A stretch of 38,020 bases of DNA. Source: Enterococcus phage EG-TP1. Positions 15,165-16,572 of this stretch are shown in pieces (the first letter of the stretch is position 1; every line of letters starts with the position of its first letter). Below the pieces are notes generated by a model. That model had not been told where the DNA came from and did no database searches. It worked only from the letters and a program-made list of their open reading frames with translations. Position numbers and translations under genes: made by a program. Location: the sequence record PQ571292.1; one strand, given 5' to 3'.

Positions 15165-15659
15165 TTATTCATGATTTTTTTCGACTTGCGACTCATAATA
15201 ATGCTCAAAACCTTTAATTAAGATTGCAATAACGTAAAATGTGCTAGCAAATCCCATTGATGTAAAAGAAAGCCAAAGTGTAGTTATTATATTGGAAATC
15301 AAAGAGTTAGAATTACAGTCGAAAAAAAGCAGTATAAAAGTCATCAATGAACTGATAAAAAAAATTAATGTAGATATTAACAATCTGTCCATTATTTTTA
15401 TATCCGTACCCAATTCTTTTAATGCGTTTATAAACTTTGAATTTGAAAAAGCTGGAATAAGCGAAAAACTTGATAGGAACATTGCTGTTGCCAACGCCGA
15501 AAAAGATAGAGAAGCAGACATTATGTCAGTAAAATTGTTAATTTTTGAAGGACTAATTTTAAATACCCACCCCGCCAAAATTGCTGCAATTCCAACTATA
15601 AGCACAACTTTATTTCGCTTCATTCTTCCTTTCTTCATTGTGTATTTCCTCACTTTCAA
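15165..15659 (-). CDS. Four-helix integral membrane protein (164 aa), second gene of a two-gene cargo operon
   Basis: Basic N-terminus MKKGRMKRNK followed by four hydrophobic segments (VVLIVGIAAILAGWVF; LSFSALATAMFLSSFSLIPAF; LLISTLIFFISSLMTFILLFF; IITTLWLSFTSMGFASTFYVIAILI). Its start overlaps the upstream gene by about 50 nt. Confidence 0.55.
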   Translation of the reverse strand: MKVRKYTMKKGRMKRNKVVLIVGIAAILAGWVFKISPSKINNFTDIMSASLSFSALATAMFLSSFSLIPAFSNSKFINALKELGTDIKIMDRLLISTLIFFISSLMTFILLFFDCNSNSLISNIITTLWLSFTSMGFASTFYVIAILIKGFEHYYESQVEKNHE

Positions 15660-16572
15660 TGCGAGATATTTTAAATTTTGTCTTTAGAAAATCATAATGG
15701 ACATCAAATGCGGTGTTTAATAATCCGTAAGCAGCCTGATCATCAATTTCCTTTTCAAAAAAAATCTTTCCTGAGTAATATAATTTGTTTTTAATTAAAT
15801 CGATACTATCTGTAACTCCGTCTGCAATACCATCAACTTTTAACGCCTTAATTTCAATATTATCGACAGTCATTAAATCTTTTACCTTTTTCTTAATGCT
15901 AGGTTTTGATAACTGATTAGACTTTAAGACAACAAATAGTTCTTCTCCCTGGAATTGTTTAGCAAATTTAAAATCACCAAACTCGTCTCTAGTATCATCC
16001 TTATACGATTTAAAATTATCCGGACTTGCTACTTTATATGAAATTTGGTCGACTATATCAAGATTTTCTATTCTATTATAGCCATCTTTATTTAATATAA
16101 TTTCAAATTGTAATCCTTTGACATCAACTAATTTACATATAAATCTTCTTAAATCATAGGTATTTATAGTACCTCTTCTGGCATAAACTGCAAGGATATT
16201 TCTGAAAGGATCAAAAATTATTTGAGTATCAGCAACAATTCCTTCATTCTCTTCATGCTCTATTTCGCGCCTTCTCTCATCAATTGTTTTAGATACATCT
16301 GCTACTACGATTTCTTGATCAAAATTTACCCGAGAAATTGTTATCAACCAATAATAAACAAATTCTCCACGAAATTTTTCTTCGAGAGTTCTTTTTTGCA
16401 TAGCTTGTATATAATAATCATCACTGTCTATCCTTAAAGTAGGTATTTTGCTCCATTTTTTGGTTTCAAAATTTTTAAAAGTCGATTCTAACACTTCTCT
16501 AAATTCATTTATACCACCTTTTCTTCCGGGGGTCAGTCTAAAAAAATTTACTCTTGCGTCTCTGTTTTCCAT
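15610..16572 (-). CDS. Hypothetical soluble protein (320 aa) of no family I recognise; first gene of the two-gene cargo operon
   Basis: Long ORF with the AT-rich composition of cargo. It has no Walker A, no GS..DxD and no HEXXH. It is followed by an overlapping membrane-protein gene. Confidence 0.55.
   Translation of the reverse strand: MENRDARVNFFRLTPGRKGGINEFREVLESTFKNFETKKWSKIPTLRIDSDDYYIQAMQKRTLEEKFRGEFVYYWLITISRVNFDQEIVVADVSKTIDERRREIEHEENEGIVADTQIIFDPFRNILAVYARRGTINTYDLRRFICKLVDVKGLQFEIILNKDGYNRIENLDIVDQISYKVASPDNFKSYKDDTRDEFGDFKFAKQFQGEELFVVLKSNQLSKPSIKKKVKDLMTVDNIEIKALKVDGIADGVTDSIDLIKNKLYYSGKIFFEKEIDDQAAYGLLNTAFDVHYDFLKTKFKISRIESEEIHNEERKNEAK

Follow-up and report, generated by a model that had tools for sequence, protein, structure and literature searches.

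Enterococcus phage EG-TP1 is a temperate siphovirus whose sequence (PQ571292.1; 38,020 nucleotides (nt), analysed over its whole length and hereafter called the window) contains two minus-strand genes, here named A and B, at positions 15165-16572, in the slot between the endolysin gene and attP/int. The question raised by this locus is what a cytoplasmic protein and a compact membrane protein with four transmembrane (TM) helices are doing together in this place. A previous interpretation based on the DNA letters (hereafter the sequence-only reading) had considered the pair as an exclusion cargo combining a cytoplasmic sensor with a multi-TM effector, of an undescribed kind. The first part of this proposal remains the best-supported one, while the second is not retained: the two genes probably encode a two-component module for phage exclusion (abortive infection) of the RexAB type, which temperate siphoviruses of Enterococcus and Streptococcus carry as a mobile cassette. 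As judged from sequence comparisons, it forms a new branch of this known type of defence, missed by the Pfam RexA and RexB models and by those of PADLOC.

RexAB is the oldest known phage-exclusion system, and outside lambda-like phages it is hardly ever picked up by standard detectors. No description of a Rex-like system in Enterococcus or Streptococcus was found in the literature. The existence of divergent Rex systems will hardly surprise the specialist; what is of use, and open to testing, is the link of DUF6731 and a 4-TM partner with Rex, the Gram-positive examples and a regulation by a double lock. Tying a Firmicutes clade, and through it DUF6731 and its conserved 4-TM partner, to RexA and RexB would widen this family across phyla, give names to pairs annotated as “hypothetical” in Enterococcus and in well-studied Streptococcus pyogenes prophages, including that of one M1 strain, and provide Gram-positive systems for studying the Rex mechanism. 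The homology and fold of A, the topology of B, the pairing of the two genes, their mobility and the covariation of their leader RNA were all established by computation.

Relationship of protein A with RexA

An exhaustive profile search with A among 1.8 billion representative proteins retrieved 224 clusters at E<=1e-3, nearly all of 280-330 amino acids (aa), and its 16 close homologues originate from Enterococcus and metagenomes. Together with the 38 homologues of B, these matches indicate that A and B are real genes and not chance open reading frames (ORFs), and both ORFs were indeed recovered on the minus strand where the sequence-only reading had placed them. Two profiles were used, a broad one made of 127 full-length representatives with A as first row, and a narrow one, A1, restricted to Enterococcus. 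Aligned by hhalign with a 25-protein alignment of the RexA family, the broad profile gave a match of 96.8% (E 2.5e-10, 253 columns) that runs end to end, from residues 7 to 301 of A and 2 to 271 of RexA, and single lambda RexA was reached at 63.6% (E 6.7e-5), also collinearly. A hidden Markov model (HMM) of A's family aligned collinearly with lambda RexA as well, with 13.5 bits, lambda RexA itself scoring 326.8 bits against the Pfam RexA HMM. These profile alignments identify A as a remote homologue of lambda RexA, and the earlier statement that the pair fits no known system has to be abandoned in view of the end-to-end alignment.

Protein A displays the two-domain fold shared by the RexA superfamily (RexA / DUF4747 / DUF6731), and its sequence homology to RexA appears via the broad profile only. 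Within the broad family, 91 of the 127 representatives belong to Pfam DUF6731 (PF20505) and two touch DUF4747 (PF15931), a label which in the literature covers lambda RexA and the cytoplasmic member of each of the prophage defence pairs of Sbash, CarolAnn and Butters; no mention of DUF6731 was found in the literature searched. In the 1.8-billion-protein search, DUF6731 proteins were retrieved by A's profile at whole-library E-values of ~1e-8 to 1e-5. Protein A itself did not match the DUF6731 HMM by hmmscan at E<=1, falling below the curated threshold, by which its clade is, in sequence terms, a sister of DUF6731 rather than a member. The only PHROGs match of A is phrog_11507, a family of unknown function, and neither A nor B found a match in Pfam, NCBIfam or PADLOC scans. 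By Foldseek against BFVD, A resembled uncharacterised phage proteins and one RdgC-like entry, the best match being a protein of the uncultured phage ctylc9; lambda RexA was absent among the matches at E<=0.001. The sequence-only reading would have been undermined if A had proved to be a structural, lysis or housekeeping protein; A is neither a structural nor a lysis protein.

Residues 86-110 of A constitute the sole internal segment of its model with low confidence (predicted local distance difference test, pLDDT, below 50). This highly charged loop contains an invariant ERRR motif (R100-R102) just ahead of a nearly universal E-G (E110, G111), and is a candidate for a loop contacting DNA or the trigger.

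Topology of protein B and its relationship with RexB

The longest ORF of B extends over 15165-15659 on the minus strand (164 aa from a TTG). Almost certainly, B begins at the ATG at 15638, so that its product has 157 aa and its gene overlaps A by 29 nt: this ATG is preceded at a distance of 7 nt by a GTGAGGAA ribosome-binding site, every B homologue starts with M[KR]KGR, and the counterparts in two related loci are called at 157 aa (L001, an integrated prophage of Enterococcus songbeiensis, and L002, a related phage; other loci are designated likewise). The overlap of about 50 nt announced by the sequence-only reading is correct for the longest, TTG-initiated ORF and does not apply to this likely start.

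Four hydrophobic helices are located at residues ~10-26, 36-63, 79-103 and 113-140, the last one extending to 155 in the AlphaFold2 model (pLDDT 82.9), so that hydropathy and model agree with the compact membrane protein with a basic N-terminus formerly described. This N-terminus is strongly basic (MKKGRMKRNK), and the central loop SNSKFINALKELGTDIKIMDRLL (K68...LGTDIKIMDRL) is positively charged, conserved and contains most of the invariant residues. According to the positive-inside rule, these two charged regions predict that the N-terminus, the central loop and the C-terminus of B are cytoplasmic, the same arrangement as proposed for RexB and Sbash gp31 (PMC6426596). B combines the features expected from a RexB-like component such as Sbash gp31, CarolAnn gp43, Butters gp31 or PP_5644: a length within ~145-180 aa, four TM helices, predicted cytoplasmic termini and a gene located directly after that of a RexA-like protein.

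The Pfam RexB model (PF15968) did not match B. By Foldseek against BFVD, B matched at rank 1 the partner protein in ctylc9, the phage which also gave the best match of A, and at rank 2 a 165-aa protein of Mycobacterium phage Sbash (prob 0.99). From its organism and its length, this protein is read as gp31, Sbash gene 31 encoding 165 aa; gp31 is an experimentally validated RexB-like component (PMC6426596).

Pairing, overlap and mobility of the cassette

Starting from B, an A-family gene was found directly upstream in all 26 loci (18/18 viral ones from IMG/VR and 8/8 metagenomic ones). Starting from A, the next gene is a ~150-aa 4-TM gene in L001, L002, L004, L006, L008, L012, L015 and L017, the single exception to this order being L014, a 2-kb contig. 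Bona fide DUF6731 genes examined in GC-rich bacteria are, like A, trailed by ~150-aa 4-TM genes in prophage-like regions.

The pair occurs almost wholly inside phages and prophages, and a search of genome contigs with profile A1 returned E. songbeiensis and one weak match in a metagenome-assembled genome only. Its position is variable: the cassette follows the lysin in the window, L001, L002 and L006, and in L004, L012 and the Streptococcus Javan prophages it separates the early genes from the terminase. Nucleotide homology with unrelated phages begins in the convergent neighbour operon and ends at ~16730, just upstream of the promoter, which indicates that the promoter travels with the cassette. 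This limit and the varying position lead us to consider the pair as an accessory, self-contained cassette and not as part of a lineage core. That the pair might recur as a unit in varied contexts, as contemplated in the sequence-only reading, is what the 26 linked loci in different phage positions display, and the opposite case, a core gene of a single lineage, does not correspond to what was found.

The end of A and the start of B overlap in another frame by 29 nt in the window (15610-15638), as do the two genes of Sbash by 41 nt (L054, 1380-1420) and those of CarolAnn by 26 nt (L053, 5976-6001). Overlapping frames suggest translational coupling of A and B, possibly conserved across these three otherwise sequence-unrelated Rex-like pairs. 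In some relatives from Enterococcus and Streptococcus (L004, L006), a gap of 14-24 nt without overlap separates the A-type gene from the membrane protein gene.

Homologues of A with 46-51% identity are present in Javan489 (MK448775, S. pyogenes M1 GAS; 14610-15518) and in nine other Javan prophages. They are found in prophages of S. pyogenes, S. dysgalactiae and S. uberis, ~12-18 kb from the record start, and are labelled hypothetical proteins in GenBank. In Streptococcus-type phages, the Rex-like pair comes directly after a phage tRNA gene (tRNA-Lys, tRNA-Trp) or a remnant resembling a tRNA 3' end (GGTTCGATTCCGAC...), located at 1896-1970 in L034, at 3626-3697 in L012 and ~100 nt upstream of gene A in L021-L036.

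Promoter and LexA-type box

The sequence-only reading had attributed to the operon an upstream region of its own, and a sigma-70-type promoter was found there (coordinates of this and other features are given in Table 1). It is the second-best promoter-like match in a scan of 13800-17900 (10/12 plus the TG) and is aligned and conserved in L001, L002, L004, L006 and L039. Its spacer contains a LexA-type box, AAACAGATGTTT. The consensus of the Firmicutes LexA (Cheo) box is CGAAC-N4-GTTCG. At the same position, the homologous cassettes present GAACTGATGTTT, GAACGTATGTTT, GAACGTACGTTT, GAACATATGTTT, GAACCTATGTTC and AAACTGGTGTTT; in a six-locus alignment the invariant columns of the box are exactly AAC and TGTT, and the N4 spacer varies. 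Invariant half-sites around a variable centre are the pattern of a Cheo box, and LexA may bind here. The streptococcal versions of the cassette are devoid of this box.

The neighbouring operon, convergent with the pair, is encoded on the plus strand at 14325-15146 (14285-15146 with its promoter) and comprises three genes of 122, 88 and 94 aa, the first of which has a weak YolD-like match (E 0.002). Its promoter, TTTACA-17-TATAAT, is the best one of the 13800-17900 scan and holds in its spacer a perfect 14-bp LexA/Cheo box, CGAACAAACGTTCG, at 14294-14307. This promoter and its box are kept beside the Rex-like pair in L001, L002 and L006 despite differing downstream genes (DUF5960 in L006). With this perfect, conserved box, an accessory island under SOS control seems to occupy the right end of the prophage.

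The bidirectional terminator that the sequence-only reading placed at 15124-15155 was recovered with its 14-pair stem and T-runs on both strands, and is 94% conserved in L006. A second copy of this terminator sequence (87% over 39 nt) is present in L001 at 6900-6938, after a gene encoding a helix-turn-helix (HTH)-M78 protein.

A conserved structured leader RNA

The leader preceding gene A is predicted to fold into three nested helices with a minimum free energy of -38.4 kcal/mol (z = -6.3 compared to shuffles). In the outer helix H1, an anti-Shine-Dalgarno stretch, UCUUCUUAU, is paired with the Shine-Dalgarno region of gene A; the middle helix H2 pairs AUAUCUGCU with AGCAGAUAU; the inner hairpin H3, followed by a U-tract, looks like an intrinsic terminator or attenuator and corresponds to the palindrome reported at 16620-16656 by the sequence-only reading. 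The view of this hairpin as a mere lysin terminator was rejected, as the cassette's own promoter precedes the hairpin, which accompanies the cassette when it moves.

The same three-tier fold is predicted in 8 loci, two of which, L012 and L015, have leaders of unrelated sequence. RNAalifold on 5 sequences revealed compensatory changes in 8/30 pairs, and the H3 stem is preserved by such changes in L004, L006 and L039. A covariance model built from five sequences, R1, found untrained Streptococcus leaders at the correct place with E-values from 2e-6 (L021) to 3e-3. Its match to the L012 leader is weak (E 0.27), and the L015 leader was not recovered by the R1 search, though both leaders fold alone into the three-tier architecture. 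In a 9-sequence alignment, fitted to the model's own structure, which must be kept in mind in reading these counts, double (compensatory) changes affect 20/30 pairs and 94.5% of the cells are paired; none of 500 shuffles reached the observed values and slid controls gave ~50% pairing. No Rfam family matched the leader. From these comparative predictions, the leader is a previously undescribed, putative regulatory element, conserved with covariation across Enterococcus and Streptococcus prophages.

Comparison with known Rex-like systems and proposed mechanism

The pair differs from lambda RexA/RexB (PF15969, PF15968; PDB 8TWQ) in several respects. The Pfam models of the lambda proteins are not reached by A or B, and B corresponds to RexB in size, topology and gene position without detectable sequence similarity to it. 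In lambda, the rex genes belong to the immunity region and share a transcript with the repressor gene, whereas the A/B pair, in Firmicutes hosts, is separated by ~5 kb from the cI-like gene and comes with a promoter of its own, a LexA-type box and a leader predicted to sequester the Shine-Dalgarno sequence. The arrangement of lambda and CarolAnn, within the immunity region and co-transcribed, is therefore not that of the A/B pair. This location is not universal, as Sbash, Butters and Rubeelu also lack it.

The pair shares more features with the actinophage systems. Sbash gp30/gp31, CarolAnn gp44/gp43 and Butters gp30/gp31 also associate a cytoplasmic protein with a 4-TM partner, the Sbash 30/31 genes likewise have their own promoter outside the immunity region, and the central cytoplasmic loop is the most constrained part of both the Sbash-type membrane proteins and B. 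Conversely, the A-type proteins of actinophages are ~50 residues longer than A and are tied to DUF4747 by weak HHpred matches only, and their defence phenotypes have been demonstrated, A/B being known here from sequence. The RexABpp pair of a Pseudomonas putida prophage (PP_5643/PP_5644) belongs to a host of another phylum. In P. putida, over-expression of the RexA-like protein leads to a RexB-dependent growth defect.

Drawing on the lambda, Sbash, CarolAnn and P. putida systems, we infer by analogy DNA binding by A, activation of B, membrane depolarisation, LexA control and an anti-phage phenotype. Protein A would be a dimeric cytoplasmic sensor binding DNA non-specifically, as RexA does, and B a RexB-like four-helix effector of the inner membrane. 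An infecting phage would yield a signal, such as one of its proteins, or an intermediate consisting of DNA alone or of DNA bound to protein; A would sense it and switch on B, and B would dissipate the membrane potential, so that ATP drops and the infection aborts. Translational coupling through the overlapping frames would set the A:B ratio.

As predicted from the upstream sequence of the cassette, two locks that move along with it seem to hold its expression at a very low level. The first would be the LexA-type box in the promoter spacer, allowing induction by DNA damage or RecA activation, and the second the leader, in which the helices with the terminator-like hairpin would sequester the ribosome-binding site. 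Such a tight control fits the A/B pair in light of the RexB-dependent growth defect observed in P. putida. This double lock provides a testable answer to how a potentially suicidal module may be silenced, and it parallels the DNA-damage control recently reported for DUF4747/CarolAnn-type operons, of which 17 are preceded by CapK/CapS regulators (PMC13373217).

Weight of the evidence and alternative explanations

Several results weigh against the exclusion reading. On the side of A, hmmscan at E<=1 gave no match to Pfam RexA (PF15969), and none was found to DUF6731 or DUF4747 either; single sequences of Sbash gp30 and CarolAnn gp44 showed no similarity to A. The narrow profile A1 matched neither lambda RexA nor the RexA family significantly, and HMMER searches of the PDB with the narrow and broad profiles yielded no meaningful match (nothing at all with the broad one), which places the A-RexA sequence link at superfamily depth only; it is obtained by profile-profile comparison via distant relatives. 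On the side of B, hhalign of its family with lambda RexB was not significant (E 0.31), nor was that of a broadened family with four RexB sequences (E 0.19), although these alignments are collinear (TM2-loop-TM3) and share a [KR]E.G motif after TM2, as a hint only. Single sequences of CarolAnn gp43 and Sbash gp31 showed no similarity to B, and its Foldseek match with the Sbash protein reaches only E 0.049 and a TM of 0.46, small helical bundles matching readily. The component HMMs of PADLOC-DB v2 returned zero families with A and B at E<=1; the comparison with CBASS, Pycsar and Kiwa made by the sequence-only reading finds no support either, neither protein matching any PADLOC model. The box of the window, of the form AAAC...GTTT, deviates twice from the GAAC-N4-GTTC core, and is by itself not significant, as 71 one-mismatch matches occur in the window for 64 expected. 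Moreover, a LexA-type promoter predicts expression mainly upon SOS or prophage induction. Lambda rexAB is expressed with cI in lysogens, unlike what this promoter implies for the pair, and a role at induction fits equally. No experiment on the phenotype of the A/B pair or of any Firmicutes homologue was found in the literature.

The LexA-type promoter leads to the main alternative, in which the Rex-like proteins would act mainly during prophage induction and not in defence of the lysogen, the SOS-derepressed operon serving lytic commitment, the exclusion of superinfecting phages from the induced cell, or a modulation of host proteolysis and physiology through B. The LexA-type box conserved in the promoter spacer of Enterococcus-type cassettes, and the perfect CGAACAAACGTTCG box of a neighbour operon kept in L001, L002 and L006, argue for it, and lambda RexA stabilises commitment to lytic growth independently of RexB. 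We nevertheless hold it to be unlikely: LexA-repressed promoters usually show basal expression, induction by DNA damage is likewise on record for genuine defence operons of this type, the streptococcal cassettes lack the box, and B is strictly kept with A, whereas the switch function of lambda RexA needs no RexB. A related proposal retains the Rex-like module but makes it SOS-gated and riboregulated, silent in the resting lysogen owing to LexA and the leader, unlocked by DNA damage, RecA activation or a leader-opening factor, and acting mainly at the point where induction or infection is decided and not as a constitutive defence. We put it forward tentatively, as somewhat improbable; if true, DUF6731 and its 4-TM partner would represent an extensive branch of Rex systems that spans phyla and has escaped recognition until now.

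The regulatory logic of the cassette also recalls tisB/istR-1, with its LexA-controlled promoter, its primary transcript whose structure blocks translation and its product acting on the membrane. A LexA-type box, a leader hiding the ribosome-binding site and a small multi-TM protein could accordingly belong to an SOS-induced, membrane-depolarising stress, persistence or addiction module, with B as toxin, A as regulator and no specific anti-phage role. The likeness is one of regulation only, as TisB is a 29-aa single-helix peptide controlled by an antisense RNA antitoxin, with no sensor protein and no homology to the pair; given the homology of A to RexA, the near-confinement of the pair to phages and prophages, and the fact that no candidate antisense RNA or antitoxin was seen, this explanation is very unlikely. 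Slightly less credible still is a recombination or DNA-metabolism function of A, similar to that of RdgC (PDB 2OWL), with B as mere anchor or companion and no exclusion: RdgC is a far weaker match to A than RexA, with which the sequence profile aligns end to end, and it is a stand-alone housekeeping gene unpaired with 4-TM proteins, whereas the A-B pairing is strict and the pair occupies an accessory slot outside the replication/recombination module. Finally, the pair lies directly downstream of the holin and endolysin genes in the same orientation, B is a small multi-TM protein, and Butters gp31 had weak HHpred holin matches (PMC7542560), all of which could evoke a lysis accessory such as a holin or antiholin with its regulator. 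A Phage_holin_1 holin is already encoded by the phage, as is an endolysin, whose gene is followed by a terminator. The cassette comes with a separate promoter, in L004, L012 and the prophages of Streptococcus it is remote from the lysis genes, and B matches no Pfam holin family; such a role, the most improbable of all, was rejected for a cassette that is mobile and often distant from lysis genes. The RexAB-type exclusion module remains our preferred interpretation of the pair.

Genomic context of the pair

The main features of the window are listed in Table 1. Its minus-strand genes include those for the terminase, portal, protease, tail, Phage_holin_1 holin and Amidase_5 endolysin. The location between lysin and attP proposed by the sequence-only reading is in agreement with the endolysin and integrase coordinates and is confirmed by L001, in which the pair sits at the right end of the prophage with bacterial genes directly beyond. 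As also anticipated, the pair is more AT-rich than the structural genes, with a GC content of 0.30-0.315 over 15001-17000 vs 0.37-0.44, the lysogeny module at 11001-12500 being equally AT-rich. A megablast of the region against GenBank phages gave zero matches.

Table 1. Position of the cassette elements and of landmark genes in the window
Feature	Position	Strand	Description
YqaJ recombinase	7234-8175		In the replication/recombination module, apart from the accessory slot of the pair
cI-like HTH gene	10034-10360	+	~5 kb from the A/B pair
ImmA-like M78 peptidase	10361-10843	+	
Tyrosine integrase	12702-13928	+	
Bidirectional intrinsic terminator	15124-15155	both	14-pair stem, T-runs on both strands; common to the convergent operon 14325-15146
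Gene B	15165-15638	-	157 aa from ATG; RexB-like membrane protein (predicted), four TM helices
Gene A	15610-16572	-	320 aa, ATG start; predicted cytoplasmic RexA-like protein, phrog_11507
Structured 5' leader	16573-16685	-	~110 nt, three nested helices H1, H2, H3
Shine-Dalgarno AAGGAG of gene A	16582-16587	-	9 nt before ATG; base-paired in H1
H3 (inner hairpin)	16621-16655	-	GGAAGTCTTAGAAAAC...GTTTTTGAGACTTCC then U-tract TTTTGGTTT; 14-nt arms, 86% complementary
Cassette promoter, sigma-70 type	16690-16718	-	-35 TTGAAA 16718-16713, 17-nt spacer, extended -10 TGgTATGAT, hexamer 16695-16690
LexA (Cheo/SOS)-type box	16698-16709	-	AAACAGATGTTT in promoter spacer; degenerate GAAC-N4-GTT[CT]
Amidase_5 endolysin	17017-17820	-	Followed by a terminator downstream
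Phage_holin_1 holin	18203-18511	-	

Between the endolysin terminator and the cassette promoter, a ~256-bp segment (16730-16985) has no counterpart in L001, L002 and L006. Within this segment, an ORF of 61 aa on the plus strand (16788-16973) has a good ribosome-binding site, no Pfam match and no homologue in the examined loci; the segment represents an insertion or, alternatively, a small gene specific to this lineage. A role of this ORF as regulator of the pair was rejected, its segment being without counterpart in these three loci.

In the lysogeny module, between the ImmA-like peptidase and the integrase, a plus-strand gene at 10855-11922 encodes a 355-aa HSDR_N / PD-(D/E)XK nuclease-like protein. 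The equivalent slot of L002 (12405-13718) is occupied by a 437-aa SNIPE/T5orf172/MUG113 nuclease, and this slot may be a second variable hotspot of defence or nuclease genes. Among the structural genes, a 1213-aa tail protein (19412-23053, minus strand) has a Prophage_tail endopeptidase domain, Gly-X-Y repeats of the collagen type and internally repeated segments of ~45 aa (…YTWLKYAD…TGKTYIGLAYNK…).

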